Assembly: GCA_050187295.1 (NCBI GenBank)
Contig: JBFWXQ010000006.1
Coordinates: 110,296-174,295, forward strand
Source: Blastocatellales bacterium
Lineage (GTDB): Bacteria; Acidobacteriota; Blastocatellia; RBC074
Direction: 5' to 3'
DNA length: 64,000 nt
The stretch's first letter is position 1. Each line of letters starts with the position of its first letter. A model generated the notes under the pieces. It had not been told where the DNA came from, ran no database searches, and saw only the letters and a list, made by a program, of their open reading frames with translations. Shown here in pieces: positions 33,684 through 56,951 of the stretch. A program made the translations under genes and the position numbers.

Positions 33684-35824
<2,141 letters not shown>

Positions 35825-35828
<4 letters not shown>

Positions 35829-37591
35829 ATCCGTTGCTGGTGATCAGAACCCTGAAGCATTTGCGCTGGGAGCAAATCGCGTATCGTCCGTTGCGCCTGG
35901 CTCAATTCAAACTTTATCGCTCTTTGCCTCAGTTGGCTTTCCGCCCGAGCGAAGCTGGATCAAACTCTTCTTCGGTTTCACAGCAATCGGTTGAAACCAT
36001 TCGCCGAATCTTCAACGAACAGTTCGCTCATTTGAATCAGCCGCTTGGCGAATTCGATCTTTGGCTGAACGATTTGAAGCAAAACCGATTCGCGTTCCTG
36101 AATCGCAGCCTGACGATTGACCAGTTGGATTGGAATCGCCGTTACGAAAGTCATCTGTGGAATTACAACCTGCATTATTTCGGCTTTGCGGTCTGGGCCG
36201 CGCGGACGTTGGTTGAACGCGGCGAAGCTTCGGCGTGGCCGGTCTGTCGCCGGTTGATTGAAAGCTGGATTGCCGCGGCCAAACCGGGACGCAGCGACGG
36301 ATGGGATGCCTATCCGATTTCGCTGCGCGTGGTGAATTGGATTTACGCTTATTCGCTGGTGGCAGAAACCGAAGACGAAGAGTTTCTGTCCAAATGGCGA
36401 GCCAGCCTGTTCGATCAGCTTGGTTTTCTGCGCCGGCATCTGGAACACCACCTGCTGGCCAATCACCTGTTGAAAAACGTCAAAGCATTGGTCATTGGCG
36501 GATTGTTCTTTCAAAACAATGGCTGGCTGAAAGCGGGCGAACGGCTGTTGTGGCGCGAATTGGACGAACAGGTTCTGGCCGATGGCGGACATTACGAACG
36601 TTCGCCGATGTATCACGCCCAGGCGTTGGCGGATTTTCTGGAAGCTTATGCGTTGCTGATGGCGTTTGGCCGCATCGAGCGGGGCGAAAAGATCGAAGCC
36701 CGTCTGCAGGCAATGGCTGGCTTTATGTCAGCGATGAGTCATTCGGACGGTTCGCTGGCATTGTTCAACGATTCGGCCAACACGATTGAAACACGACCTC
36801 AACCGATAATCGAATCGGCCAAACGGATTGTTGGCGGAACGCCGCAAGCTGTCAGCTTTCCGCAGACCGGATACTACTTGTGGGCCTCGTCCGATGGACG
36901 CGAAAAAATCATGGTTGACGCCGGGCCTCCTGCGGTCGCTTACAATCTGGCGCACGCTCATTGCGATTTGCTCAGTTACGAACTGTGGATCAACGGCCAG
37001 CCGTTCATAGTTGATTCAGGAGTTCATGGTTACGGCGGAGATCGTTTCCGCGAATATTGCCGCTCGACGCGAGCGCACAACACTGTGATGTTCGATGGTG
37101 TCGAGCAGTCGGAAATCTGGGACACATTCCGAATGGCCCGCTCCGCCAGATTGCTCGGCGCTGAATCCGGCGGCGATGAAAATTCGTGGAGCTTCAGCGG
37201 ATCGTTTGAAAGGTTCGATCGCTGTTTGACGCACGAACGGCAGATTCGCAGGGAATCGAACGGCGAATGGCTGATCACGGATCGCGCTCGGCGTGGAGAA
37301 GCTTCGCAGGCCGCCAGCTTCATTCACCTTCACCCATCCGTTGAAGCCAGAATGATCAACGCGACCGAAGTGTTATGCCAAACCGTCGAGCGGCCAATCC
37401 TGATCGCTCCGTTTGCTGACGAAGGCGTGACGATTGCCACGCGATTGATCAGAGCAAGCGAAGATCCGATTCAGGGATGGCGCTTTCCCGATTTCGGAAT
37501 TTCGCAGCCGGGCGTTACAATTCAGTTCGATTATCGAATCAAATGTGGCGACGCATTTGGTTACAGTGTCAGACAGTCATTGAACAAATAA
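35825..37591 (+). CDS. Heparinase II/III-like (alginate lyase fold) protein
   Basis: Motifs LWNYNLHYF, YPISLR..NW, NHLLKN, DGGHYERSPMYH, HAHCDLLS and YCRSTRAHNT. Confidence 0.85.
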
Positions 37592-37603
37592 CAGGCCCCG
37601 AAA

Positions 37604-38920
37604 ATGCGAATCACATTTCTCTGCCAATATTTTCCGCCAGAGATGGGAGCGCCCTCCGCGCGCACGTTTGAACACGCGCGTCATTGGGCGAGCCTGGGTC
37701 ACGATGTAACGGTCATCACTGGTTTCCCGAACCATCCAACCGGAATCATTCGACCGGAATATCGCGGGTCGTTCGTCAAACGCGAACGCGTCGAAGGTAT
37801 TGACCTGCTGAGAACCTGGGTTTATTGCACGGCCAACAAAGGTTTTTTCAAACGCATTCTCAACTTCCTGTCCTTCTTCTTTTCGTCTTTGATTCTGGGC
37901 GCGGCGATGACGCGGCGTCCGGACGTGGTCGTTGGAACTTCGCCTCAATTTTTCTGCGCGGTGGCGGCTTATTGTTTAAGCCTGATCAAACGCGCGCCTT
38001 TTGTGTTTGAAGTTCGCGACATCTGGCCGCAGTCGGCGGTCGAACTCGGAGTGCTGAAAAACCGTTGGGCGATTCTTGCGCTGGAAGCAATTGAAATGCA
38101 TCTGTACCGCCGCGCCGCGCTGATCATTCCGGTCGCCGAATCCACGCGCGATTACCTGGTTGCCAAAGGCATTCCATCTGAAAAAATCAAAGTCATCCCG
38201 AACGGCGTTGACCTGCGTTACCTGTCTTCGGCCGTCGCCAAACCGTCGGAAATTCGCCAACGGCTGGGATTGCAGGACAAATTCGTTGTCTCTTACATCG
38301 GCACTCACGGCATGTCGCACGCGCTGGATGTGGCGTTGAACGCCGCCAGGGTTTTCAGCAGCCAGGACGAAAAGCTTCACTTCCTGTTTGTCGGCGAAGG
38401 CGCCGAAAAGGAAAAGCTGAAGCAGATGGCCGCAGAATGGCAGTTAAAGAATGTGACATTCGTTGACGAACAGTCTCGTGAGGCGCTGTTGAGTTATTAC
38501 AGGCTAAGCGATGTCAGCCTGGTTCCATTGAAACGATTGCCCATTTTCAAAAAAGTCCTGCCATCAAAATTGTTCGAGTTGATGGGCACCGGATGCCCAG
38601 TGATTTGCAGCGTCGAGGGCGAAGCCGCCCGTCTGGTCGCTCGCGCCGAAGCCGGTTTGTGCATCGAGCCGGAAAATGTCGAAGCTCTGGTTGACGGCAT
38701 CAATCAGCTCCGTGCCAATCGCCAATTGTGCCAGAAGCTGAGCGCCAATGGTCAGCAGTTCGTCAAAAAGCATTATCAGCGATCAATGCTGGCAGAAAAA
38801 TATTTGGCCATTTTGCAAAACATCAACAGCGCCAAAAAGGGCGAGGTTTTGGAACAAAGACTTTTTACCGATTCACCGATTCCGGCTGAACATCGTCCAC
38901 CAACGACTGATCACCGATGA
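37604..38920 (+). CDS. Glycosyltransferase family 4 (WbuB-like)
   Basis: Motifs QYFPPEMGA, GFPNHPTG, EVRDIWP, IPNGVD and PSKLFE. Confidence 0.88.
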   Translation: MRITFLCQYFPPEMGAPSARTFEHARHWASLGHDVTVITGFPNHPTGIIRPEYRGSFVKRERVEGIDLLRTWVYCTANKGFFKRILNFLSFFFSSLILGAAMTRRPDVVVGTSPQFFCAVAAYCLSLIKRAPFVFEVRDIWPQSAVELGVLKNRWAILALEAIEMHLYRRAALIIPVAESTRDYLVAKGIPSEKIKVIPNGVDLRYLSSAVAKPSEIRQRLGLQDKFVVSYIGTHGMSHALDVALNAARVFSSQDEKLHFLFVGEGAEKEKLKQMAAEWQLKNVTFVDEQSREALLSYYRLSDVSLVPLKRLPIFKKVLPSKLFELMGTGCPVICSVEGEAARLVARAEAGLCIEPENVEALVDGINQLRANRQLCQKLSANGQQFVKKHYQRSMLAEKYLAILQNINSAKKGEVLEQRLFTDSPIPAEHRPPTTDHR

Positions 38921-40434
38921 GATCATACGTTTCACTGTTCACCTTATCTTTTGTTATCGCCTTGCTGGTCACGCCGCTGGTCAGGCGAAAGGCTACCGAA
39001 TGGGGCGCGGTCGCAGTGCCGGACGAAGGGCGGCATATTCACGCCAGTCCAACGCCCCGTTTGGGCGGCATAGCCATTTTCCTGGCGTTCATTGCAACGC
39101 TGGCCTGCGCTGCATTTCTGAGCAACATGGTCGGCGATATTTTCCGCTCCAACCTGCCACGGCTGCTGGGATTGCTGGCGCCCGCCACGCTGATTTTCCT
39201 GTTTGGAATTTACGATGATTTCCGCAGCGTCAGCGCTCCGCAAAAAATCATCGTGCAGACAATCGCCGCCAGCCTGATATTTTCCGCGGGCTTTCGCATT
39301 GAAAATCTGTCTTCGCCTTTCGGCGGTTACTGGCACGTTCCCATCTGGCTCAGCTTTTTGTTTACTGCCGTCTGGGTGATCGGTTTGACGAACGCCTTCA
39401 ATTTGATTGACGGCATTGACGGGTTGGCTGCAGGAGCTTCGGTCTTTGCGCTGATTTCGATTCTGATTTTTTCCGTCGCCCAGGAAAATCCTGAAATCAG
39501 TTTGCTGGCGGTGGTGTTGGTTGGCGCGGTGCTGGGGTTTCTGCGATTCAACTTCAATCCCGCGACAATCTTTCTGGGCGATTCGGGCAGTTTGTTTCTG
39601 GGCTTTATGGCGGCGTCACTGTCGCTGGCCGGTTCACAGAAAGGTTCGACAATCGTTGCGATTGCCATTCCGCTGGTTTCGTTTGGATTACCTATCACCG
39701 AAGTCGGCCTGTCACTGGTCCGGCGTTTTTTAAGCGGGCAATCGTTGCTGGCCGGGGATCGCGGTCATATCCATCACAAATTGTTGCAACACGGATTAAG
39801 CCAGCGTCAGGCAGTGATCTTGCTTTACGCTGTCTGCGCGCTGTTTTCACTGTTCGGGTTGATGCTGCTCAATCCCCAGCGAAATCTGGCCGCGTTGATC
39901 TTTTTCGTTCTTGGCGTGGGGATTGTATTTGGAGTTCAGCGACTGCGTTATGCGGAATTCAGCGAACTGGGCAATCAGATCAAAAACGGCGTCACACGCC
40001 GCCGTCGCGCGCTGGCGGTCAATGTGCGCATCCGGCGCACCAGCGAAGACCTGAGCAAGGTTCAGAACGCCGAACAACTTTTCGCCGCGCTTGAATCCAT
40101 GCTTGAAACTAATGAATTTGATCGCGCGGTTATGGAATTGAACATCAGCGGAAACCTGGCTGCGAGAGTGAATCCCGCCAGTCACACCATCTGGTCGTGG
40201 AAACGCGACGACGAAAATGCGGATGAGGAATTATTCGCGGATCATAATCAGCCTAGATGGATGCTGACGGTGCCATTGACGGATGAATTCGGAGAAGCCA
40301 TCGGCGCAATCACTTTTCACCGCAAACTGTCAGATCACGCTCCAGCCATTGACATCAAACACCTCTGTACTGACTTTCAGCGCGAACTGAGCGCCGCTTT
40401 GAACAGAACTCTGATTGAAGAGCTTCACCTTTGA
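38917..40434 (+). CDS. wecA: MraY/WecA-family undecaprenyl-phosphate HexNAc-1-phosphate transferase with C-terminal extension
   Basis: Motifs [31 protein letters not shown] and DRGHIHH, plus about 150 extra C-terminal residues. Confidence 0.85.
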
Positions 40435-43223: not shown

Positions 43224-46200
43224 TTACCTTTGGCGAAGTCGCTGTTGATTTCGCTTTATGCGTTCAACGTTGCTCGCTCGTATCGCTGAATCGGCGAGTT
43301 CTTCTACAAGAATTTTTTGAGGCTCTGGCAAGGATAAAGGTGTACCTGACAGCAATTTTTTCAATACTTCGTAGGTTTCTCTTCGTTTCAACAACCCCTG
43401 GCTCATGGCTTCCTGCGCATCAAAAGTCAACAGACAATCGAGGCACGCCAGTTCACAGCGTTGATGATGCTCTTCGCTTCTGAAAAGAATTTTCTGCGCT
43501 TCTTCCATCCATTGCCTTCCCATCCCTAACAATTCACGGACGTGACCGGCGCCTCCAGGTACGTTGTCATAAATTACTGCTCCCCATTCGTTGGCTTGAC
43601 AACCGACACCGGTCAGCATCACTCCTAGTTCACGTGTGTCCAATTCGAGCAGCTGTGCTCCAGCAATTTGCAATGCTTGCGCCAGTGTCCGGATAATCGC
43701 TTCTTCTTTGGCCAACAGTGACAAACTGCCTTCAAACGTCAGCAACAGAATGTCTGTAGTTTCGCGCGCCGCCAATGTACGATTGCGCAGCACTGGTGCT
43801 CCTTCATTGGGCTGCCAACAAACGTAATGCTCTTTGGCGGCAGTCAGCGGCGCGTGTGTGGCAAAACCCGAAGGCAGATTTTGCCGCCCCTCACCCGTCT
43901 TAACCTCCGCATCAGCGTAACCGCATTTCAGACAAACGGCGAAGCCGCGCCCGCGCGCCACCAGTTTAAGGGTGTCGTTATCGTCTTCTTCCCAAATCGC
44001 TCCGCTGTTGTACACCAGTAATTCGCCTGCTTCGCGGTAACGCGCGGCAAGGCCGTTCACGCCGGCAAAATGCGCATGCGTTTCCACTTCATTTGCCTGA
44101 TTGCCAAAACAAATTGTCGCGCGTTCGACGCTGCCGATACGCTCCACATCCGTGCTGCGACGCGGCGGATCCCAGGCCGCGCTGCTGAAACCATGCTTAG
44201 GCAACAACATTGGTTGTTCGTTTTGTCTGGCCGCGCTGCCGCAAATCGGACAGGCTCCTAATGGGCGAGAGATTTCGTAATAGAAATGTTTGTTCGCGCA
44301 TTCGGTGAAATGCCCGGTCAGCCCGACGTAGTTGTCAATCGCCAACCCCGTCCAATGTTTGCGCAGTCCGCGCGAAGTAATCAATTTGCCGCCCACCAGC
44401 AATTGCGACCCCGGCACATACTCGCGCAGCGCCATCAAGCCCGGACGTTCCAACCGGAACTGATCTTCTTCACGAATGCGCGTGCGCTCGCCATCGCGAC
44501 TGCCTTCGTCCGGGCGGATCACTTGCAGCTTTTGCAAGCCGATGGGGAAACCGTAACGCGGCAGAAACTGCCGGTCGGCCAAGGCTTCGATCACCGTAGT
44601 GTCGTAAAGCGCGGACAACTGGTAACGGATTGCGTTGGCCTGTCGCTGCGAAAGAGCGTCCCGCCAGGTTTGCAACAATTCGTCATAATCTTCACGCCAA
44701 TCGCACACGGCGTCTTGAAACTGTTCGATCATGGAATTAATACAGGCGCGCCAATCGCCTATTAACGCAAGTGGCGTATGCTGAAGCAATGATTCCAAAA
44801 TCGGCCGATACTGCTTTTCACCCGCGTCGCTCACCCAGCGCAGAAAATCCAGAAAATGCGGCTCCAGACCAGGTTCATTTTGCTCCGGTCGCCACCAGTT
44901 TGTTCGCGCCGGCGGTTGCCAATCTGCTGAGGGCGAACGCAACTCTGGCTTATCGAAACCGGATGTCCATTTTTGCGGCTGCGCTGTGCCGCAAAATGCG
45001 CCCATGCTGCCAAAAGCGCGCATTGCGCCAACCTGCGCGCCGGGCGGATATACATCCTGAAAAAATTTGCCGAGCAGCAGTGCGTGACAGTGGCGCCGTG
45101 CAATGCGTTGCCGGTCGAGCAATACGCGCGGGCTGCGCAGAGTACGTCCGAGGTAATCGCCGAATTGAAAAAACACTGCGCGGTCAAATGGTCGCGGGCG
45201 TGCATACGTCAAAACCACTGATGAACCATCAGCGCGGCGTCCGGCGCGCCCGGCGCGTTGCAGGTAATTGGCTTTGCCCGGGGGCACATTGCCCATCAGC
45301 ACTGCGTTCAGGCCGCCGATGTCAATGCCGAGTTCAAGAGTCGTCGTGGCGCTGAGGATGTTGCGCGCGCCGAGTTTGAACAATTCCTGCAACTGGCGGT
45401 TCTGTTTGGGGCTGAGTTGTGCGCTGTGTTCTTCCGCCCACAGCGCGATTTCAAAAATAGGCGAACGCTGCAATTCCGTTCGCAAGCGTCCGTAGCGTGG
45501 ATCACTGTCGAGTTGTTTCGCCGTCACCGGTTGCAAATCGTTGCAACCCAATTCCGGCGCGCAGCCAAACACAGAACGCGGCCAGATATGGCGTGTTTGG
45601 GCAGATTGAAACCATTGTTCCGGGCGGCGCAATCCGAGCGAGGGGAAGTTCAATCGCAATGCCAAAGCCTGGCCGCCATCCGTTTGTCGCGTGTCAGTTT
45701 CAAGCCAGGGCAATTCGCCCGCGTGTTGGCACAGCGCGCGGAACGCAGCACGCAACGCATCGCGCGAAAATTCCTCGATTAACGCTTCCTCCAATCCGCA
45801 ATTCTTCAACACTTGCGCCGCAAACCAGCGTCGCCGCTGATCCGCTTCCACTCCAACAAAACGTATAACCCAATTGCGTCGCGCCTGCTCTTCGGCAGCC
45901 CAGCGGCCAACAAAAACGCGGTTGAAAGCCCAGGTGCGGTCTTCTTCCGGCGACCCAAGCGTGATGACACCGTCTGACCGCAGCGAATCGCACAGCGCCG
46001 CCAGAAAGTCCCGCCAGCAAACTGTGAAATGCGCACGCACTTCGGCAGGCAAATTGCCCAGCAATTGATTTGGCGCTTCGATTTGTTCCAGACCAGGGTA
46101 CGTGACTTCAAGCAAGCCCAGCGTTTCGACTGATACTGCGCGCCGCAACGGACTGGCCAATTCTCGTCCAATCAACGACCGCAGCCGTGTTTTGACGGCG

Positions 46201-48608
46201 GCAAAATTTAGTTCTCGGATTTGTTCAGCGCGTTCGGTCCAGTCTTTGGCTTCGTATGAATTGATTGTGTCCGGATCAATCACGTCGGTCAGGATTGTTT
46301 GCTGTGCCAACGCCGCCTCCCAATCTTCCAACGCACCGCCCGCTTGATGCTCACGCAATTCCTGACGTAATTCGTCGAGCTTCTTTTCCCAACGGCGGCG
46401 CTGTTCCGGTTGCGTAGCACGCTTCTGTAATTTTTGTTCGTAATCGGCAATATCCAACTCAATATCCGCGATGGTGGCAGCGCTCGAAGGCGAACTTTGC
46501 TGCGCGCAGCGAGCCAGTGCCGCACGTACCAACTGCGTTTCGTGTTGCAAGGTCAGGCGCGGGCCGAGCCGCGCGGCTTCCTGACGGCTGTCGCTGAAAG
46601 CCAGCAAGCGACGTCCGCGCGCGGGCAGCCGTTTCCTGTGCGCGGTGGGGAATTCGGGCATATCAGCCAAGGCTGTTTCCGCCAGAATCGCCAACGTTAA
46701 AGGAGCTGATGCGACAAACGGGCGCCAGGCGTCATCTCCTTTCGCTTCGCAGCAAGGGCAACTGTTAATTTGATACAACGCCAAGCCAGAGGCTGCGTGC
46801 TCACTTGTTCGCACGTCCAGAATTTGCCTGCCGCTTTCGCGCGCGCCACGCCAATCGAAGAATCGCTTCTTGCCGTACCGGTCGTCAGCCACGGGTAACA
46901 AACGCAGATTCGCTTCCTGCGCCGCCAAGGCCACTTCGCCGCAATTGGCGCAGCGATAAAGCGATAGTGTCGCGCTATTGCAGTGAAGGCAATGATCGCT
47001 AAAACCGGCCAGCACATCGCCTAGCCCCGGCAGCTTTAAATTTTCGTTGCCGGTGCAATCCGCGTTCAGACAAACCACCAACCCATCCGTTGGTCGCGCC
47101 AGCAAATGCAGACGATGGGGCAGCAACGGGTAATCGCCGATGTTTCGTCGTGCTGCTGCGCCCAATTGCAAGATCGTAATCGTTGCGCGCAAGGCGTTTT
47201 CGCTGTCTTCACGCCACAACGCCGAGGCCAGTTCGCGCAATGGCAGACGCTTCCGCTCCCACAAAATTTCGGAAGCCTGATGCACGATTTTCGCGTGTGA
47301 CAGCGATTGATGGAGCAGCAATGCGGGCTGATCGCCAGCTTGTCGCTGCGCATCGTTGACCGCCGCCGCAGCCACCAACCGCGGCAATCGCGTTGCCAAA
47401 TGCGCACAGTCATCAGCATCGGTCGCCAGTTGCGGCTTGCCTTCGGCGTCTATCGTCAGCGTCGCAGCCGTCAACCAGGCTTCTTGCGCCAGCATTGCGC
47501 AATCAGGCACGTGCGCCGGATCGGCAACTTCCGCTAACTCAATGCGACGTTGTTGTCCGCGAATGACATTGACCAATTCCGGCGGTTTGCTGAAAAGCGT
47601 GGCCGCGAATTGACGCAATTCTTCGTCGCCGTCCGCGCCTTCGCGGCCAATCGTGGCGGATGTGGCAATGTGCAGCAATTGTTCGGCGCGCACGCCGCAG
47701 CGTTCCGTCAGCCGCCGCAACAACAGGGTGATTTCCGCCGCCAGTGTGCCTGTGTACAAATGCGCTTCGTCCAGCACCACTGTTCGCAGCGCATCGCCGA
47801 AAAAGACCGCGTCCTGGGGGCGGCAGAGCATGTATTCAAGCATCGAGTAGTTGGTAATCAGGATGTCCGGCGCGCGACCAAAGGCCGCGTCGCTCGGCGA
47901 AAGCTTTTGTCCCTTGTGATCCTCAAGCCCGCGCGCTTCTTTTCGCGTGCGTTTGCGGCAAGGATTCCATTCGGTGATGTCTTGATCGTTTGCTGCGCGG
48001 TGGTCTTCTGGAGTTTCGCTGGTGAAGTGGAACAGCGTCACGTCGTTTTGGTCTTGCAGCCATTGGTAAAGCCGATCCATTTGATCGTTCACCAGCGCGT
48101 TCATCGGATACAGGATGATGCACTTGACGCCTGTACCTGTGCCGCGATTGGCGAACAAATCATTGAGCGCCGGGAGCAGAAAGCTTTCCGTTTTGCCCGC
48201 GCCTGTGCCTGCCGTGACGACCAGCGCCGGGCGCGAATGATCGTTGTGAAGCTGTTGCGCCTGGCGAATGGCTTCGAGTTGGTGTGTGTAAAGCTGCCGG
48301 TTGCGCGGCACAGCGTTATCGTGATCCAAATAATTTGTCAGCGTCGCATCAAACAATCCTTGCCGCGCCAGTGAATCCAGCGTCTCGGTTGAGGTTGCCG
48401 CCGGAAACGCGCCTTCCACCCATAACTCACTAACCAACCCGCCGGATTCCGCTGGCCCTGCCCAGAGACTGCGACAAATTTCCGTCAACCTCGGTTCGCG
48501 CACGAAATTGCGATCCAGCGAAAATTCGACCAAGCGGTCGCGTAGGTTATTAGCGAAGGAAAACGCATCGAGTTGAGCAAGATTTCTTTGTTCATTCTGC
48601 TGAGTCAT
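43224..48608 (-). CDS. Large SF2 DEAH-box helicase with C-terminal DUF1998 (DruE/YprA-like)
   Basis: Motifs LYTHQ, TAGTGAGKTE, YPMNALVNDQ, DEAH, TSAT, FSDSRQ, HSAQL, TTTLELGIDIG, QRAGRAGRR, FLPRYGFP and ALREYVPG. DUF1998 signature YDNVPGGAG...CELACLDCLL. Confidence 0.9.
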   Translation of the reverse strand: MTQQNEQRNLAQLDAFSFANNLRDRLVEFSLDRNFVREPRLTEICRSLWAGPAESGGLVSELWVEGAFPAATSTETLDSLARQGLFDATLTNYLDHDNAVPRNRQLYTHQLEAIRQAQQLHNDHSRPALVVTAGTGAGKTESFLLPALNDLFANRGTGTGVKCIILYPMNALVNDQMDRLYQWLQDQNDVTLFHFTSETPEDHRAANDQDITEWNPCRKRTRKEARGLEDHKGQKLSPSDAAFGRAPDILITNYSMLEYMLCRPQDAVFFGDALRTVVLDEAHLYTGTLAAEITLLLRRLTERCGVRAEQLLHIATSATIGREGADGDEELRQFAATLFSKPPELVNVIRGQQRRIELAEVADPAHVPDCAMLAQEAWLTAATLTIDAEGKPQLATDADDCAHLATRLPRLVAAAAVNDAQRQAGDQPALLLHQSLSHAKIVHQASEILWERKRLPLRELASALWREDSENALRATITILQLGAAARRNIGDYPLLPHRLHLLARPTDGLVVCLNADCTGNENLKLPGLGDVLAGFSDHCLHCNSATLSLYRCANCGEVALAAQEANLRLLPVADDRYGKKRFFDWRGARESGRQILDVRTSEHAASGLALYQINSCPCCEAKGDDAWRPFVASAPLTLAILAETALADMPEFPTAHRKRLPARGRRLLAFSDSRQEAARLGPRLTLQHETQLVRAALARCAQQSSPSSAATIADIELDIADYEQKLQKRATQPEQRRRWEKKLDELRQELREHQAGGALEDWEAALAQQTILTDVIDPDTINSYEAKDWTERAEQIRELNFAAVKTRLRSLIGRELASPLRRAVSVETLGLLEVTYPGLEQIEAPNQLLGNLPAEVRAHFTVCWRDFLAALCDSLRSDGVITLGSPEEDRTWAFNRVFVGRWAAEEQARRNWVIRFVGVEADQRRRWFAAQVLKNCGLEEALIEEFSRDALRAAFRALCQHAGELPWLETDTRQTDGGQALALRLNFPSLGLRRPEQWFQSAQTRHIWPRSVFGCAPELGCNDLQPVTAKQLDSDPRYGRLRTELQRSPIFEIALWAEEHSAQLSPKQNRQLQELFKLGARNILSATTTLELGIDIGGLNAVLMGNVPPGKANYLQRAGRAGRRADGSSVVLTYARPRPFDRAVFFQFGDYLGRTLRSPRVLLDRQRIARRHCHALLLGKFFQDVYPPGAQVGAMRAFGSMGAFCGTAQPQKWTSGFDKPELRSPSADWQPPARTNWWRPEQNEPGLEPHFLDFLRWVSDAGEKQYRPILESLLQHTPLALIGDWRACINSMIEQFQDAVCDWREDYDELLQTWRDALSQRQANAIRYQLSALYDTTVIEALADRQFLPRYGFPIGLQKLQVIRPDEGSRDGERTRIREEDQFRLERPGLMALREYVPGSQLLVGGKLITSRGLRKHWTGLAIDNYVGLTGHFTECANKHFYYEISRPLGACPICGSAARQNEQPMLLPKHGFSSAAWDPPRRSTDVERIGSVERATICFGNQANEVETHAHFAGVNGLAARYREAGELLVYNSGAIWEEDDNDTLKLVARGRGFAVCLKCGYADAEVKTGEGRQNLPSGFATHAPLTAAKEHYVCWQPNEGAPVLRNRTLAARETTDILLLTFEGSLSLLAKEEAIIRTLAQALQIAGAQLLELDTRELGVMLTGVGCQANEWGAVIYDNVPGGAGHVRELLGMGRQWMEEAQKILFRSEEHHQRCELACLDCLLTFDAQEAMSQGLLKRRETYEVLKKLLSGTPLSLPEPQKILVEELADSAIRASNVERIKRNQQRLRQR

Positions 48609-48623: not shown

Positions 48624-51600
48624 TTAAAGGTTTTGGAGAAGGTGCAAGGTCAACAGCCGTCGCAGCGATGCGTGACGAACGGCCAACGCTAAATTATTCT
48701 CGTGTACTGGTTCCAGGTTGGGTTGTGTCAAAGCGGTTGTCGCTCGCGCCAAAATGCCCTGAGTAATAAAGGGCTGAGCGAGGTTCAAATCAGTGGCGGC
48801 AGCGGCAAGCAAAGCGTTTTTGGCATGGTTGACGTTTGGGCCGCCCGCGAAATGTCGGCGCAATTGTTCCAAAAGGATGCTGCGGTGCGGATGCTGCCAA
48901 ACGCGCAGCACTTTGGCTAAGAGCAACGGATCAATGTTGGCCAGTCGTTTGGCCGCATCAATCAGATAGTCCGATAGTTCTTCGTCGCTGTCCACTTCTG
49001 CCAGGGCAAACAACGTTTGGCGCGCTGTTTCAGCATCCGGCTGCCATTCGCGCAGCAAGGTTCGCAGCGCGGACAACCAGGTTTCATTGCACGGCGGCGT
49101 TTCCAATCCTTCCGGCAAGGCTTCGTCCAGCAGCCAAGCGCGCAGAAAGGCGACGGAGTGTTGAGGAATCAACGAACGCAAGACTGCCAGCGCATCTGGT
49201 TCCAGCAACGGCAGATGAAACCAGCGAATCAGTGCTGCTGTTTGTCGGGCATCTTGCATAGTTAATTCGGAAAGCGCCTGTATCCAGCGACGTTCTGGCC
49301 ACCATGCACCCAGCCTTGCACCTGCGAAGGCCACAGCCACAGCCAGCGGCTCGGTGCAATCGTCCGGCAAGTCGCACACCCACCACCAAGCGTCTTCGGC
49401 GGCATCGCTGGTTTTTGGTATTAGCGAAATCAGTTTGCCGCTTGCATCCCACCACCACACTGCATATTGCTCGTCCGGTTGGATTCGCTGGTGAAGTTGC
49501 AAGCGAATCAGCCGCGCTGTGCCGTTGGGCAATGATTCGCAAATTGCATCAGCCACGATACCGGTGTTGACGACGCTTCCGGCTACCCACAACGAGCGAC
49601 TAGCCGGAGAAAAGTTGAACATTTGCCGGACGCGCAGGGGAGCGCCCCAGCCGTGCAATTCCCCCAAAGAGCCGATGCGGCGCGGCGTTCGATGCGATAC
49701 GCCATCACCTTCAAACAAGAAAAGCTGATTGAGGTTCAAGGCTTGTGTTCCCCAATTGGCAGGAACAGCAAGTTTGAATAAATCGCGTTTGGCCTGCTCG
49801 ACGGTCAATCGGCTGTGTTTGTTGAGTGGTTGCCAACCTTCTGTTGTTAGATGGGCGGCTCCAACGACTTTCAATTTTACCGGTCGCCGGATGGAGCATC
49901 GCTGTTCGTTTTTTTGCAGGCCGATTCGAATGTCCAATTGGCTCGCATCCAGTTCAGGAGTAATGATGAGCGGCCCGGCAATGGTCGTGGCCTGCCCGTC
50001 CGGTTTGAGTTCGACTGCGCTCCCACGGCAGCGGGCGTAACGAACAGACACTTCAGGTGGATGAATGATCTTGATCTGAAACTTTCTGCCCCAAACGATG
50101 TCGCGGTCATCCCCTGGGAAAACTCCAACCTGGTTGGCCCAAACCGGAACGCCAGCGGTTTGTTGCAGATTCGGAGTCCATAGCAATTCACCATTGAGCG
50201 ATGCGCGAAGTTGTGTCGGCCAACTGCCGGCAGGCAAACGGTACAGTTTGGCTTGTTGCAAATCGGTCAATTGCCATTCGTTTGGGTGCGGTTCGATGGT
50301 CAAGTCCGCGGCGGTCAGCAGCGCATAGGAGCTATTCACGCTCAGATTCGCAGCGTAAGCGTCGGGCAAACGCGCGCCTGACGGCAAACGGTAAAGCACT
50401 ACGTCTTCATCCCTCGGCCAGCATTCCAGATCGCAACTGGCAACGGTTTCGCCTTTTGCGTTGACCAGACTGGCTATGACAGTCGGTTGATCGAAGGGAA
50501 GAACGACAGTTCGCGATTGCGCTGGCGAATAACTGCCGTTTGGCTGTTGCAGCAATCGCTCCGTCAGTCGCCCGCCAATCCATACATCGTAAAAAGCTTC
50601 GCTCAGGTTCAAGGCCGGATTGACCACAAGCTGACAGGTGAAATGCGGCGCGCCGCCATCATGCCAGCGCAACACAGGCTGCGTGATGAACGACTCGGGC
50701 AGCGGCGTATCTTCGCTCGGCGTGATGGCGGATGCTGTTGCCAGCGTCATCGCATCGTCAACCCATTCGGGCAACAGCCAGGGACTGTTTTCCAGCTTTG
50801 ACCGCGCCTGTTCCGGGGAAAGCGATTTGAATCGGAGCGCCTGCAAGTCTTGCCACAATTGCCGAAAACTTTCGCTGTCTTGCCGCAATGCTTCGACGGT
50901 TTGCGGCGGTTGCCCATCCAGCCAATCTGGCAGCCGCTGCCGTAAGCCGCGATGCGTAAAGCCGAATTGCAGAAAGACTGTGTTGACCCAGCGTTGCGTC
51001 CCGAGTTGATCCAGAGCGTGACGCAAATGAAAACGGTTGACGGCGGCTCGCAACAGATTGCGCAGTAGTTCCGTGGGTTGTCCTTGCGTAAACAACAGGC
51101 TTTGCGTTTCGGCTTCGTTTGAAACAGTTGGGTCGAAATGCCCTGTGGCGACGCACGGCCACAGTTCACCATCCACAGTTTTACGTCGTCCGGTTTCGCT
51201 CAACCAGAACAGCAGCAAAAGTCCAATGGCCTCGTCTCGTCTGACCTTTCCTGCGGCAGTGTCAAAGCTTGCGTCATTCGTGGCGCGTTCTTGGAGCGTC
51301 GCCGGGTCCAGCCGCTTCAACCAAACGCGCAACCAGATGAAGTCGTAATCGCTCGGTTGTAATTCAGTCAATGACCAGCATTCGCGCCCGATTTGTTGCG
51401 CATCCGCACGAGCGTTGAGCGCACGAACGGCATTGCCGGTCGCCATCAACAAAGCCTGGCTTTCATCCAAATCAACCGCGGCAAAAATATCCTGACTCTT
51501 CCCGCTCGATTGAATAAGCGCGTTAGAAGTGACTGGCAAAGCAATCGGCAACGGCGGCTGCGCGGCGCATAAAGCGGAAACCATTGGATCAATCCATTGT

Positions 51601-52286
51601 GGTAAACACCAAGGGCTTTCTGCCAATCGTTGGCGGAAAATTTCTACAGACAGAGAGTCGTCTTGGTAGGCTCTGCATGATTCCCAGAATTGTTGAAACA
51701 AGCGACTGCCTGTTTGTGGGTCCAACAATGCTTTGATAACGACGGGTCTCTCAATGCCCATCAGCCAACCTGACAATCGGTGCGTGATGTCTTTTCCGGT
51801 AAAACCTATTTGCGCAAAGACAAGTTTGCGCAGGCAGTCATGATCGAGATCATTTCTGGCACAAGCGCCTCGTAACCGAAGTTTTCGAGCGGCTTCGATC
51901 AAAGCCTGCCGATGAAAAGCCGATAGATCATCACCGTCAAAAAGCTCAGAGCGAGTTTGCGTCGAAAATAAAATTGACGCAGGAACAAACCAATCGCTAT
52001 CACGCGGCAAGCAGCGCCGAGTGTATTCTGATGCGAAAAGCAACAACAGGCTGCCGAATGCGGCACGATGTGGCGGCGATAGCTGCCAACGTCTGACCAT
52101 GCCTGCATCGAGATTTGATGACCAGTCAATCAACCAACATAGGTCATCATCATCAGCACCTAATTCGGCCAACGACCAAACAGAAGAACCATGTTTTAGA
52201 TCGCGAACCAGGCGAGCGATAATCTGACAGGCATCACGCAACGTTAGATCATCAGATTTGGCGGCAAGCTGGGAGAAGATTTTCAT
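48624..52286 (-). CDS. 1220-aa protein of unknown function, co-transcribed partner of the helicase (DruH-like position)
   Basis: Uninterrupted 3.66-kb ORF ending 15 nt before the helicase start. It has a duplicated N-terminal helical domain, a beta-rich middle and a helical C-terminus. Confidence 0.8.
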   Translation of the reverse strand: MKIFSQLAAKSDDLTLRDACQIIARLVRDLKHGSSVWSLAELGADDDDLCWLIDWSSNLDAGMVRRWQLSPPHRAAFGSLLLLFASEYTRRCLPRDSDWFVPASILFSTQTRSELFDGDDLSAFHRQALIEAARKLRLRGACARNDLDHDCLRKLVFAQIGFTGKDITHRLSGWLMGIERPVVIKALLDPQTGSRLFQQFWESCRAYQDDSLSVEIFRQRLAESPWCLPQWIDPMVSALCAAQPPLPIALPVTSNALIQSSGKSQDIFAAVDLDESQALLMATGNAVRALNARADAQQIGRECWSLTELQPSDYDFIWLRVWLKRLDPATLQERATNDASFDTAAGKVRRDEAIGLLLLFWLSETGRRKTVDGELWPCVATGHFDPTVSNEAETQSLLFTQGQPTELLRNLLRAAVNRFHLRHALDQLGTQRWVNTVFLQFGFTHRGLRQRLPDWLDGQPPQTVEALRQDSESFRQLWQDLQALRFKSLSPEQARSKLENSPWLLPEWVDDAMTLATASAITPSEDTPLPESFITQPVLRWHDGGAPHFTCQLVVNPALNLSEAFYDVWIGGRLTERLLQQPNGSYSPAQSRTVVLPFDQPTVIASLVNAKGETVASCDLECWPRDEDVVLYRLPSGARLPDAYAANLSVNSSYALLTAADLTIEPHPNEWQLTDLQQAKLYRLPAGSWPTQLRASLNGELLWTPNLQQTAGVPVWANQVGVFPGDDRDIVWGRKFQIKIIHPPEVSVRYARCRGSAVELKPDGQATTIAGPLIITPELDASQLDIRIGLQKNEQRCSIRRPVKLKVVGAAHLTTEGWQPLNKHSRLTVEQAKRDLFKLAVPANWGTQALNLNQLFLFEGDGVSHRTPRRIGSLGELHGWGAPLRVRQMFNFSPASRSLWVAGSVVNTGIVADAICESLPNGTARLIRLQLHQRIQPDEQYAVWWWDASGKLISLIPKTSDAAEDAWWWVCDLPDDCTEPLAVAVAFAGARLGAWWPERRWIQALSELTMQDARQTAALIRWFHLPLLEPDALAVLRSLIPQHSVAFLRAWLLDEALPEGLETPPCNETWLSALRTLLREWQPDAETARQTLFALAEVDSDEELSDYLIDAAKRLANIDPLLLAKVLRVWQHPHRSILLEQLRRHFAGGPNVNHAKNALLAAAATDLNLAQPFITQGILARATTALTQPNLEPVHENNLALAVRHASLRRLLTLHLLQNL

Positions 52287-52545
52287 GACGGCTCAGACAA
52301 AATTTGCTCCTCATCTTTACGATGAAAGATGAATAAGCAATCGCTTTGGTGGGGCACGAATTTCGAGAAGGGGGCACGGTTGAGTTATATGCACTCGCTG
52401 GGTCAGCAGTTCGGGCGAGCCAGTTAAGTCTATCTTGATTCTTAAAACCAGAGCAATAGTTTAGTCGGGTTGTAGCTAATAATTACTAAAAACGCCCTCT
52501 CTTGCGTTGCGAGATTTTGTGATGAGCGACATAATTTGTCGCGCC

Positions 52546-53037
52546 ATGAAACTCTTCAGCATCGGTCACAGCAACGCGACGATTGATTTCTTTCTCAATC
52601 TGCTTCGGCGGCATGAAATTGCCGTTTTGGTGGATACGCGCAGCCAGCCGTACAGCCGTTACAATCCGCATTTCAGACGCGAAGCGCTGAAACAATCCGT
52701 CCATCAACAAGGCATCGAATATGTCTATCTGGGCAATCGCATTGGCGGGCGGCCCGAAGGCGAAGAGTTTTATTTCCAATCCGGCAAGGTGGATTATGAC
52801 GCGGTGGCCGAATCGCCGGAGTATCTGGCGGGCATTGACCAATTGCTGGCGCTGGCCGAACATCGCCGCGTCGCGTTTCTGTGCAGCGAAGCCGATTACA
52901 AACATTGCCATCGGTATTGGCTGATTACCCGCACGCTGACCCGCCGCGGCATCGAAGTCGAACACATTCTGCATTCGGGCGAAGCCGTCAAATCTTCGGC
53001 GGCGGAATTTGAACCGGCGCAGCCGAGCCTTTTCTAA
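52546..53037 (+). CDS. DUF488 family protein (copy 1)
   Basis: Motifs FSIGHS, LVDTRSQPYSR, YLGNRIGGRP and LCSE....CHR. An alternative start is ATG 52522. Confidence 0.88.
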   Translation: MKLFSIGHSNATIDFFLNLLRRHEIAVLVDTRSQPYSRYNPHFRREALKQSVHQQGIEYVYLGNRIGGRPEGEEFYFQSGKVDYDAVAESPEYLAGIDQLLALAEHRRVAFLCSEADYKHCHRYWLITRTLTRRGIEVEHILHSGEAVKSSAAEFEPAQPSLF

Positions 53038-53046
53038 AGCAACGCT

Positions 53047-53484
53047 ATGGCCACGGTCTTCACCATCGGATTTACCAAAAAGAGTTTGCGAGAGTTTGTC
53101 GAAAGCTTGCGAGCCGCTGGCGTACGCAGAATCATAGACGTGCGGCTTCGCAATACGTCGCAGCTTGCCGGGTGGAGCAAACAACCGGATTTCGCTTATT
53201 TGCTGGAATCTGGATTCGGCATTGCGTATGAACATCATCCCGAATTTGCGCCGACGGATGACATCCTGGACGCTTACAAAAACGGCGCGGATTGGGCGAA
53301 ATACGAAACACAGTTCAACGAGTTATTGAAAGCGCGCGCGCCGCAAACCCAAGCGCGCGAATTGCTGGCCAAAGAAGCCATTTGTCTGCTCTGCGCCGAA
53401 CCCACACCGGAGCGTTGTCATAGGCGGCTGGTAGCCGAATACCTGCGCGAGCTTCAGCCTGAAACGGAAATCAAACATCTGTGA
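53047..53484 (+). CDS. DUF488 family protein (copy 2, different subtype)
   Basis: Motifs FTIGFTKK, IDVRLRNTSQLAG and LLCAE....CHRRLVAEYL. Confidence 0.88.
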   Translation: MATVFTIGFTKKSLREFVESLRAAGVRRIIDVRLRNTSQLAGWSKQPDFAYLLESGFGIAYEHHPEFAPTDDILDAYKNGADWAKYETQFNELLKARAPQTQARELLAKEAICLLCAEPTPERCHRRLVAEYLRELQPETEIKHL

Positions 53485-54206
53485 GCACGGTCAAGGACAT
53501 CACCATTCTGGCGTTGACCAAAATGCACGGCGGAGTTTGCACGGCGGGAATTGACGCCGAAGGCCGCTGGGTGCGCCCGGTGCGGCCTCGCACCGAACAA
53601 CGACCTTCGCGCGAAGGCGTTTCGGATTACAGTTTGTTGCCGCTGGATTTCTTTCACGGCGGAAAATCGCATCTGGTCAATCTGGGCGTGACGCGATTTC
53701 AATTTTCCGACGCTGCGCCGCATCCGCCGCACGTCGAAGATTGGACGATTGATATGAGTCACAAACCCGAACACCTGAACAAACTCAGCGAAACAGAGCA
53801 GGCGCAGTTTCTGGCTGCGCACGCGGAAGACGATCTTGCGCCGCTCTGCCATCGTCACGAACGTTCGCTGATGCTCGTTCAACCCGACGGCTTTTCGTTT
53901 TCCTTCTGTCCGAATCAAACGGGCGACGACGTTTTGGTTCGGGCTTCGTTCGATTTGCGCGACGAAAGTTTTGCCGACATTGGCTGCACCGATTTGCGAA
54001 TGCGCGCGCTGGGGCGAAAGCTGCTGGCCAAAACCGGCGGCGGCAACGTTTCGCTGACCGATGCGGATTTCCGGCGACGCGGAAAGCAAACGACGTATTT
54101 GACGCTGGGATTGTCGCGGCTGTTTCAAAACAAACACTGGCTGATTCTGGTCGGCGTGCATTCGCTGCCGGAACTGGCCGTAGAGATTGATTACAATCAT
54201 CTTTGA
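53481..54206 (+). CDS. Dual OB-fold-like protein
   Basis: N-terminal ILALTKMHGGVCTAG...WVRPV and C-terminal YLTLGLSR motifs resemble the dual-OB family found beside DUF488 genes. The GTG start overlaps the upstream TGA. Confidence 0.6.
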   Translation: MSTVKDITILALTKMHGGVCTAGIDAEGRWVRPVRPRTEQRPSREGVSDYSLLPLDFFHGGKSHLVNLGVTRFQFSDAAPHPPHVEDWTIDMSHKPEHLNKLSETEQAQFLAAHAEDDLAPLCHRHERSLMLVQPDGFSFSFCPNQTGDDVLVRASFDLRDESFADIGCTDLRMRALGRKLLAKTGGGNVSLTDADFRRRGKQTTYLTLGLSRLFQNKHWLILVGVHSLPELAVEIDYNHL

Positions 54207-54216
54207 TCGTTCGGCC

Positions 54217-56448
54217 ATGCCTGACCTTGAACGCGCGTTGCGCGAACAATTTGGTTTTGATTCGTTTCGCCCGAACCAGCGCGAAGTGATCGAGCACGTG
54301 TTGGCGGGGCGGCATACGTTGGCGGTGTTGCCGACTGGGTTGGGCAAATCGTTGTGTTACCAATTGCCAGCGCAGTTGTTGCCGGGATTGACGCTGGTCA
54401 TTTCGCCGCTGATTGCGTTGATGCAGGATCAGGTGGAGGCTTTGTTGCGGCGCGGGTTTAGCAACGTCACCAGTTTGAGCAGCGCGCTCAGCCCGGCGGA
54501 ATTAGGACGACGATTGAGCGAAATCGAAAGCGGCCAGCACAAACTGGTTTATGTCGCGCCGGAGCGTTTCGATTCGCCGCGTTTTCGGCAACTGGTGCGG
54601 CAATCGGAACTTTCGCTGGTGGTGATTGACGAAGCCCATTGCATCAGCCAATGGGGACACGATTTTCGTCCGCATTACCGGACTTTGTTGGCGCGGTTGC
54701 CGGAATTGCGGCGCGCGACGTTTCTGGCGGTGACGGCGACGGCGACGCTGGAAGTGCAAAACGACATTGCGGCGACGTTGAGTTTGCCGTCGTTGGAACG
54801 AGTCATCGCCGATTTCGACCGCCCCAACCTGCGATTGGAAACCATCAAGGCCGACCAGCGCGAAGACAAAGACAAGCAATTGATCGAAATGTTGAAGCGT
54901 GAACCGGGCGCGGCGATTGTTTACGCCAGCACGCGCAAAGAAGCGGCCACCGCGCATCAATTGTTGCTGCAATCGGGAATTGACGCGACGTTGTATCACG
55001 CGGGACTCAGCGCCAGTCAGCGCGCCGAAGCCCAACAACGATTTTTGCAGGATGAATGCCGCATCATCGTGGCGACTGTCGCTTTCGGACTTGGGATAGA
55101 CAAACCGAACGTGCGGCGGGTGATTCATTACAATGTGCCGGGTTCGCTGGAGAATTATTACCAGGAAGCCGGGCGCGCCGGACGCGACGGCGACGCGGCA
55201 ATTTGCACGTTGTTTTATTCGCAATCCGATGTGCGAACGCAGCGTTTTTTGCTGGATCAGGCGTACCCAGAATCAAAAGTGGTTGGGCGGCTTTACGGCC
55301 TGTTGCGCGAAGCCGCGCCGCTGGCGGTGGCCGTGGGCGATTTGGCGACGGCCAGCGAGACGCCGGAAATTGCGGTCAACGCCGCGTTGCAATTGCTGCA
55401 CGAACAAGGTCACATCGCATTGACCGCCGACGGCAAATACGCGATGCCTGAACAGGACGACGTTGATTGGAAGCCGGATGTCCGCGAATTGAATGCGCGC
55501 CGTTTCAGAGCGAACGAACGACTGAAAAAGATGATCGCTTATGCGCTGGATCAAAGATGCCGTCGCGCGGCGATTCTGGGTTATTTCGGCCAGCGATTTT
55601 CGCCGCCGTGCGGAACGTGCGATGTCTGTGACGCGAAAACGTCCGAGCATCCATTGCCGATTGAGGTCATTGCTCGTCAAACGCCGAATCATAAAGCTCG
55701 ATTGATTTTGCAAACTGTCGCAGAATTGAAAGGGCGTTATGGACGAACGCTGGTTGTGGAATTGCTCACCGGCAGCAAACGTAAAAGAATTTTTGAACTT
55801 GGCCTGGATCGTTCGCCAAATTACGGGGCGTTGAGCGCTTGTCGGCAGGATCAGGTTTTGGAATGGGTGGACGGCCTTGTCGCGCAACAGCTTCTGCAAG
55901 TGACCGCAGAAGAATATCCGCGGCTGCTGATTACTGAAGCTGGTTGTCGCCGTTTGGAGTCAGAGGCTCAAGCGCCATCAGCCGACCAGGAACAGAATGC
56001 CAGCTTGGTTCCGAAAGGCGAAGTGTTGTTTTCAGACACTGTCACGGCGGCTGAGAAAACTTACAGAATTGGTGTGGAGCAAACCGCCGACGGATCGCGT
56101 TGTCTGGTCATAGCCGAAGAGTCTGCGACTGAGCCTGTTGGCACAATCGCGCGAATGGTGATTTCTGAAAACGACGCAGAAGAGTTTTGTCGGAGCCTGA
56201 AGACGGCGCTGCAACTGCTGGGGTTGGAACAGAGTCAGGCGCGGAAACGCCAGGACGAGATTAAACGGCAGTACGCGAAAGCTTACGAGAGATGGGAACC
56301 GGAGGAAGATCGTGCATTGAAAAACGGGTTCAAGGATGGGATCAGCATCAACAGATTGGCAGCGACCTTTCAGCGACAGCCAAGCGCTATTAGATCGCGG
56401 CTGACAAAGCTGGGATTGCTACAGTCCGACGGTCAGGAAGACGATTGA
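54217..56448 (+). CDS. recQ: RecQ family helicase with non-canonical C-terminus
   Basis: Motifs [67 protein letters not shown], Zn site CRR...CGTCDVC and an RQC domain. No HRDC seen. Confidence 0.9.
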
Positions 56449-56471
56449 GATCAACGCGGAGAGATATTTTG

Positions 56472-56951
56472 ATGAGTGAACTGAAACAAGTTGTGATTTA
56501 CACGGACGGAGCTTGTTCCGGCAATCCGGGGCCGGGCGGTTATGGTGCAGTGTTGTTATTCAACGGGCATCGCAAGGAATTGTCAGGAGGTTTTCGCCGC
56601 ACGACAAACAATCGAATGGAATTGCTCGGCGCGATTGAAGCTTTGCGCGCGTTGAAAGAAAGTTGCTCGGTCAAACTGCACACCGATTCGCAATACATCG
56701 TCAACGCAATTGAAAAAGGTTGGGCGAAACGCTGGCAGGCGAACGGCTGGATGCGCAACAAGAAAGAGAAAGCCGTCAACCCGGATTTGTGGGAACAGTT
56801 GTTGACGCTGTGCCAACAGCACAAAGTCGAATTCGTCTGGGTCAGGGGGCACAACGGGGACAAGGAAAATGAGCGCTGCGATCGGTTGGCGGTGGCTGCC
56901 GCTCAGCAACCGAATCTGCCCGCCGACGACGTTTACGAAGGCAGCAGTTAA
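56472..56951 (+). CDS. rnhA: Ribonuclease HI
   Basis: Motifs [33 protein letters not shown] and WVRGH...NERCD. Confidence 0.96.

Follow-up and report, generated by a model that had tools for sequence, protein, structure and literature searches.

Druantia type III combines a large helicase, DruE, with DruH, whose gene (PADLOC DruH3; E. coli, P. aeruginosa, M. smegmatis) lies directly upstream of DruE in the same orientation. Cryo-electron microscopy (cryo-EM) has resolved DruH into an N-terminal α domain, about six immunoglobulin (Ig)-like domains that resemble ICAM and cytokine receptors, and, at the C-terminus, an α domain that binds the stalk of DruE (10.64898/2026.05.13.724313; 10.64898/2026.05.13.724758). 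The N-terminal α domain of canonical DruH has been tied to DNA engagement and to a disputed 3'-5' exonuclease, not to phage-protein recognition (10.64898/2026.05.13.724313; 10.64898/2026.05.12.722862), and the residues Arg22, Lys28 and Glu64 of PaDruH are needed for defence. A Druantia type III-B or 'type III-like' branch consists of two genes and has a compact DruE without PLD (10.1101/2025.09.15.676423; Himpich et al. 2026). Here, we report the analysis of a 64,000-nucleotide stretch from a Blastocatellales bacterium (the window; contig JBFWXQ010000006.1), in which a protein of 1220 amino acids, P0001, is encoded directly ahead of a DruE gene and carries its N-terminal domain twice in tandem. 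Our reading, which we hold to be probable though by some way short of certain, is that a compact Druantia type III-like DruE has P0001 as its DruH-like partner and that the two N-terminal domains of P0001 go back to one old duplication.

The P0001 gene (48624..52286, minus strand) and the DruE gene form a two-gene operon, with P0001 as the first gene. The open reading frame (ORF) of the DruE helicase, P0002 (1794 amino acids; 43224..48608, minus strand), follows downstream on the same strand after a gap of 15 nt. P0002 matches the PADLOC DruE3 model (PDLC00037, E 5.6e-227) and six other DruE models, and its Pfam content is limited to DEAD, Helicase_C and MZB/DUF1998; neither Pfam nor PADLOC detected a nuclease domain in it, whether PLD or another. 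The locus thereby has the composition of type III Druantia, namely a large superfamily 2 helicase with DEAD, Helicase_C and C-terminal MZB/DUF1998 domains and one large same-strand partner gene directly upstream of it, with no further system genes. Owing to this two-gene context, P0001 occupies the DruH position; since its gene precedes DruE, the initial annotation of the window was right to place the protein in an immune system. The two genes and the compact DruE without PLD are also as in the type III-B branch, to which the pair can be assigned on architecture only. A search among 5.8 billion proteins found 22 close homologs of P0001, in all of which the start M1 is conserved; the related loci come from Acidobacteriota metagenome-assembled genomes, of which some bear the label Blastocatellia and some Heliomicrobium.

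The initial annotation had proposed a diverged tandem duplication of a ~205-residue domain at residues 37–515 of P0001 (positions 50742–52178), and this proposal is borne out. When residues 1–290 were compared with residues 291–560 by BLASTP, residues 33–242 and 309–529 formed one collinear alignment (74/233 identical, 32%; 82.8 bits; E 4e-23), inside which all of the motif pairs listed in that annotation fall; self-BLASTP of the whole protein listed the diagonal only. The Smith–Waterman score is 217, compared with 33.4 ± 5.0 (maximum 54) in 1000 shuffles (z = 36.6), and no further internal repeats were found in P0001. A hidden Markov model (HMM) of the repeat places the two units, each with E ~1e-88, at residues ~11–242 (R1; 51561..52256, minus strand) and ~282–519 (R2; 50730..51443, minus strand). 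Between them lies a linker of residues ~243–281 (51444..51560, minus strand), which is predicted to be disordered and is poorly conserved (mean pairwise identity 28.6%). An AlphaFold2 (AF2) model of residues 1–560, built from a 20-sequence alignment (mean predicted local distance difference test score, pLDDT, 84.8), contains two all-α domains of ~14 helices each, at residues 13–242 and 279–516, and its pLDDT drops below 50 at residues 245–264, a disordered segment between R1 and R2. The predicted secondary structures of R1 and R2 agree at 86% of 228 aligned positions, versus 43–55% in shifted controls. Comparison of the modelled halves, which the initial annotation had suggested, thus agrees at the level of secondary structure with the sequence alignment: the units are adjacent, collinear, significantly similar and of matching predicted fold. 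The domain had been called unrecognised, and it remains so in our searches, as P0001 has no match in Pfam, PADLOC or NCBIfam, a profile search matched no PDB sequence, and when the two-domain model was compared with PDB and BFVD by Foldseek, only generic α-solenoids were returned (best E 0.18).

To place this arrangement within its family, we built a repeat profile from 25 sequences (242 positions); among 1.84 billion cluster representatives, it finds 635 protein clusters at E <= 1e-3 and 346 at E <= 1e-30. Most of the 22 close homologs carry both copies; P0022 (972 amino acids) and P0023 (1087 amino acids) have a single domain, ~31–32% identical to both R1 and R2. Among the 150 matches listed of the 635, at most nine contain two matched stretches, nearly all others hold one copy at residues ~12–250 of a protein of 920–1010 amino acids, and a few giants of 1570–2170 amino acids hold the domain internally. 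The question of whether homologs carry one copy or two is therefore answered in favour of one as the rule, with two as a clade-specific exception. Single-copy relatives such as P0022, P0030 and P0050 (~920–1000 amino acids; their N-domain matches the repeat profile at E 1e-60 to 1e-90) are like P0001 in their β array, C-terminal domain and downstream DruE, but have one N-domain instead of two. At 6/6 informative loci (L001, L002, L020, L021, L038, L039), a single-copy or giant protein stands directly before a gene for a DEAD/MZB protein of ~1750–1810 amino acids, and the two-copy loci L004, L010 and L011 also consist of a partner and DruE gene pair. The P0001 family is a large unannotated family of DruE partners for which one N-domain is normal.

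Several members of this family are unusual in their N-terminus or surroundings. P0046 (L021:3992-10507) has six RNA-polymerase α-CTD/HhH repeats ahead of its single domain copy, and a Roseomonas plasmid protein of 1403 amino acids (L008:2764-6975) has a diverged single copy at residues 506–673; the latter and P0091 (L039:261-6134) bear long N-terminal extensions with weak matches to helix-turn-helix/sigma-70 region 4. As each of these three giants is followed by DruE, the N-terminus is a hotspot for the addition of DNA-binding modules. At L038:1-16286, a single-copy DruH-like/DruE pair lies between type III CRISPR-Cas genes (Cmr2-6, CARF) and a Csm6-like gene. At L001:11243-16455, the DruE beside P0023 is split over four reading frames whose pieces are contiguous in query coordinates, and it is thus either a pseudogene or the product of assembly frameshifts.

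Within the genus of the P0001 genome, the repeat domain occurs in 20/22 genomes; outside this genus but within its family and class, it was found in 0/19 genomes. The full two-copy protein together with DruE is confined to three of them (G000, which is the P0001 genome, G007 and G014), and these are also the sole genomes of the genus with a close DruE. Two further forms exist. The first is a two-copy protein of ~1000–1130 amino acids, which is without most of the Ig-like array and does not stand beside DruE; it is found at L006, L013 and L016-L019 and in G003, G004, G010, G012, G013 and G018, which have no close DruE homolog. The second is a paralog of ~435–446 amino acids that comprises only R1 and the linker, followed by the first ~60% of R2, and is 33% identical to P0001 residues 1–425; in the P0001 genome, it is encoded on another contig (C48, 8989-10326, minus strand; = L026:8989-10326). 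Nearly every genome of the genus encodes this 435-residue paralog, among housekeeping genes for ROK kinase, OmpA, MgtE and RecO, and most of them are without DruE. Its stop position is conserved, and the median ratio of nonsynonymous to synonymous substitution rates (dN/dS) is 0.12 over 55 pairs.

The history of the two copies was examined in domain trees. In a tree of 33 domains, R1 and R2 each form a clade (support 100/100 and 97/96, respectively), and two single-copy domains join on the R2 side; in a tree that includes 90 single-copy domains (121 sequences), R1 is again monophyletic (support 100, stem 0.54), as is R2 (support 82, stem 0.07). R1 and R2 are not sisters in this free tree, which we do not read as separate origins, because a tree constrained to unite R1 and R2 is not rejected and has the higher likelihood (p-AU 0.86). 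To judge from these trees, the two copies most likely go back to a single old tandem duplication, which took place in the common ancestor of the two-copy clade, an Acidobacteriota sub-lineage. It fits the trees that R2 would have stayed near the ancestral sequence and R1 would have diverged fast, with stems across the trees of 0.54–0.59 for R1 and 0.07–0.32 for R2. Single-copy domains show conservation of at least 80% at 41 positions, of which R2 has retained 34 and R1 29, so that 7 and 12, respectively, have been lost; by sequence, R2 is nearer to the single-copy form and R1 is the more diverged, extra copy.

The N-terminal part of P0001 also bears marks of recombination. From residue 1 to ~350, through R1 and the linker into the head of R2, P0001 is 85–95% identical to P0005, and the part beyond ~350 is 75–95% identical to P0003. 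Compared with P0001, P0003 is 53% identical in R1 and 80–83% elsewhere; its DruE is 84% identical to that of P0001, and the DruE of P0005 is 60% identical. Both the part of P0001 beyond ~350 and its DruE thus have P0003 and locus L011 as their nearest relatives. Sliding-window identity places the approximate breakpoint zone at residues ~300–360, in the head of R2 (51207..51389, minus strand). From this mosaic pattern, it follows that the N-terminal module has been exchanged between lineages.

Such rapid and recombining divergence of one copy could suit a different role for it. R1 might be a regulatory or bait copy, which competes with R2 for C-terminal docking (autoinhibition) or absorbs phage inhibitors as a decoy; its long stem, its 12 lost positions, its tethering through a disordered linker and its exchange as a module would all be in keeping with this. 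Integrated decoys and duplicated sensor domains likewise show a duplicated, diverging terminal domain of an immune protein, of which one copy is faster and recombines. Nevertheless, we consider this explanation unlikely. In each of the 16 lineages examined, R1 keeps E-x-x-R-R, WSLAEL, D-x-x-W-L-x-x-W and the core tryptophans, including putative active-site residues that a decoy need not keep, and no phage inhibitor of the P0001 family is known. The motifs kept by both R1 and R2 are the S/E of WSLAEL, D-x-x-W-L-x-x-W, a G and E-x-x-R-R, together with Q-x-G, W-L, S-x-x-F-x-x-x-W and P-W-x-L-x-x-W; W, L, S, D and Q of the core are invariant in both, and so is E-x-x-R-R. The latter motif stands at E87-x-x-R90-R91 in R1 (52014..52028, minus strand) and in the same column of the repeat alignment at E364-x-x-R367-R368 in R2 (51183..51197, minus strand), and is invariant across 20 aligned homologs. 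Thus, unlike in integrated decoys, both copies of P0001 keep the invariant residues, neither having lost those needed by a working copy, and neither target nor inhibitor is known; since both retain the invariant E-x-x-R-R, neither copy looks degenerate or dead. The interpretation put forward in the initial annotation stands in part: the duplication, the unrecognised domain and the immune context hold, and a decoy role finds no positive support, both copies having retained the invariant residues. By analogy with duplicated sensors, a widened recognition of phage triggers is possible, and the faster divergence and recombinational exchange of R1 appear compatible with a specificity or bait role.

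The reading of P0001 as a DruH-like protein is supported by the remainder of its structure. A second AF2 model (residues 276–1220; pLDDT 85.8; predicted template modelling score, pTM, 0.71) contains R2, an all-β region and an all-α C-terminal domain. The β region (residues ~538–995; 49302..50675, minus strand) is predicted to be an array of Ig/fibronectin type III (Fn3)-like sandwiches, and its Foldseek matches are the tandem Ig/Fn3 ectodomains of KIT, CSF-1R, LIFR and ICAM-1 (E 7e-6 to 1e-3), the same kind of match as the cryo-EM papers give for DruH. The C-terminal domain (residues ~1000–1220; 48627..49289, minus strand) is the most conserved part of the protein, with invariant W, P and R columns concentrated at residues 909–1217; it may be the DruE-binding domain, because the C-terminal domain of PaDruH has this role (10.64898/2026.05.13.724313). 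The AF2 predictions therefore reproduce the architecture of DruH, with an N-terminal α part, several Ig-like domains, and an α domain at the C-terminus. P0001 and DruH are also both monomer-sized at ~1000–1200 amino acids and without annotated domains, and both genes are co-oriented with and directly upstream of DruE. That P0001 has the same role and layout as DruH is well supported.

Whether the two families also share descent was approached by profile–profile comparison (hhalign) of 90 single-copy relatives with 37 DruH sequences. Two collinear local matches, both weak, were obtained, one in the β region (E 6e-4, probability 29%) and one in the N-domain (E 9e-3, probability 4%). The N-domain match scores 25.6, versus 14.8 ± 2.3 (maximum 22.8) for column shuffles, of which 0/150 reach 25.6. 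It pairs L-L-L-L-x-x-x-E-x-x-R-R-x-x-x-G-x-W of the P0001 family, the segment of E87-x-x-R90-R91, with F-C-L-y-a-A-E-W-w-R-R-x-h-x-G-G-x-W of DruH. Motif spacing in the DruH sequences maps Arg22/Lys28 of PaDruH to DGR...YAY[RK] and Glu64 to the AE of AE-W-x-RR, so that the E of E-x-x-R-R probably corresponds to Glu64. Common descent of the P0001 family and DruH is likely on these grounds.

A number of results weigh against the DruH-like reading. In PADLOC at E <= 10, there was no match for P0001 and 17 homologs, nor for the single-copy members, whereas a control E. coli DruH (L009:5639-8998, STY4851/ECs_5259 family) matches eleven DruH3 models. No Pfam or NCBIfam model matches the tested family members; PF27205 and PF27201, the labels attached to canonical DruH in the source database, are apparently missing from the Pfam copy used, because the E. 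coli control did not match them either. BLASTP and single-sequence hhalign against E. coli DruH found nothing, the probabilities of the two hhalign matches are low, and, when aligned globally by hhalign, the N-domains score no better than block shuffles; owing to these low probabilities and the global result, homology is not established. Arg22 and Lys28 of DruH have no basic counterparts in the P0001 family, in which W-S-L-A-E-L takes the place of DGR...YAY[RK]; this replacement, the doubled N-terminal α domain and the lack of a DruH HMM match are what set P0001 apart from DruH. The relative position of R1 and R2 is uncertain in the AF2 model (pTM 0.54). The role of the DruH N-domain is itself disputed, as one preprint reports a 3'-5' exonuclease and another describes DruH without nuclease activity and with single-stranded DNA (ssDNA) binding in its C-terminal part (10.64898/2026.05.12.722862). 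Finally, the ~1000–1130-residue two-copy relatives and the 435-residue paralog exist in genomes that lack DruE, and so the domain pair can work, or persist, without it.

The failed HMM and single-sequence searches, the hhalign probabilities below 30% and the negative global test would be expected if P0001 were unrelated to DruH, that is, an analogous DruE partner recruited independently, with another activity and a convergent architecture. We regard such an origin as improbable. P0001 shares gene position, size class and three-part architecture with DruH; the two local profile matches are collinear, and one of them lies on the most conserved motif of the DruH N-domain and exceeds 150/150 shuffles. 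Moreover, canonical DruH is itself so divergent that its members are only 21–24% identical within the family.

With P0001 taken as DruH-like, a mechanism can be proposed by analogy. R2 would be the resident copy at the canonical N-domain position, and R1 would be an extra copy on a flexible tether of ~35 residues that serves as a second DNA-engaging module. Given that R1 and R2 alike retain the invariant E-x-x-R-R and the tryptophan/leucine core, each would be functional in engaging DNA. With two such modules, the protein could take hold of, or process, a pair of DNA ends or arms, or bind a single one more avidly; phage intermediates that are branched or contain ssDNA may thereby be bound at two points, or the range of substrates may be broader. 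The substrate would then be handed to DruE through the C-terminal α domain, which would recruit DruE, and exchange of the R1 module by recombination may supply variation at the N-terminus. A bolder version, which we think rather doubtful, holds that the ~235-residue all-α unit is an undescribed, self-sufficient DNA-end-binding or nuclease fold, that the tandem grips both arms of a branched phage intermediate, and that the 435-residue pair is a domesticated, DruE-independent core gene, with a part, for instance, in DNA repair or in regulating the immune system. That the duplication is a neutral or decaying accident without functional consequence is very improbable: one domain copy is the usual state and is enough for a protein to pair with DruE, but both copies are intact in 16/16 two-copy lineages, down to ~35% identity among them, and the 435-residue paralog is kept in nearly all genomes of the genus at a dN/dS of ~0.12.

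The genes that flank the DruE pair are unrelated to it. On the left lie a molybdopterin oxidoreductase gene and a polysaccharide gene cluster, in which genes for a heparinase II/III-like protein and for GT4 and GT1 glycosyltransferases (35825-40434, plus strand) precede the defence genes. On the right, and divergent from the P0001 gene, lies a DUF488-RecQ module (DUF488-DUF488-double-OB-RecQ-RNase HI; 52546-56951, plus strand); with the Druantia-like pair, this module would make up a small defence island. Two ORFs on the minus strand (52486-53238, 53454-54347) were weighed as candidates for a third system gene and rejected, since they have no Pfam or NCBIfam match and no neighbour conservation; because they overlap the plus-strand DUF488-RecQ operon, they were treated as shadow ORFs, which they probably are. 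Elsewhere in the P0001 genome (contig C14, ~34426-37695, minus strand), there is a second DruE/YprA-like helicase ORF of 2015 amino acids, with 33–46% identity across its helicase cores.

DruH is the least understood component of Druantia type III, and the 2026 preprints disagree on whether its N-domain is an exonuclease site and on the place of DNA binding. A Druantia-type system is known in itself; what is new is a variant with a duplicated N-domain inside a DruH-like family that current models miss. No current DruH model captures this family of DruE partners (635 clusters at 50% identity), and defence-annotation tools therefore probably miss or truncate such systems. Since only E-x-x-R-R, and not DGR...YAY[RK], is common to the P0001 family and DruH, the number of candidate universally essential residues is reduced. 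There are natural variants that double the N-domain alone, exchange it through recombination, replace it or lengthen it with DNA-binding repeats, or retain it by itself as a core gene. These variants mark the N-terminus as the evolvable and probably substrate-facing end of the protein, and they offer ready-made constructs for testing the N-domain.

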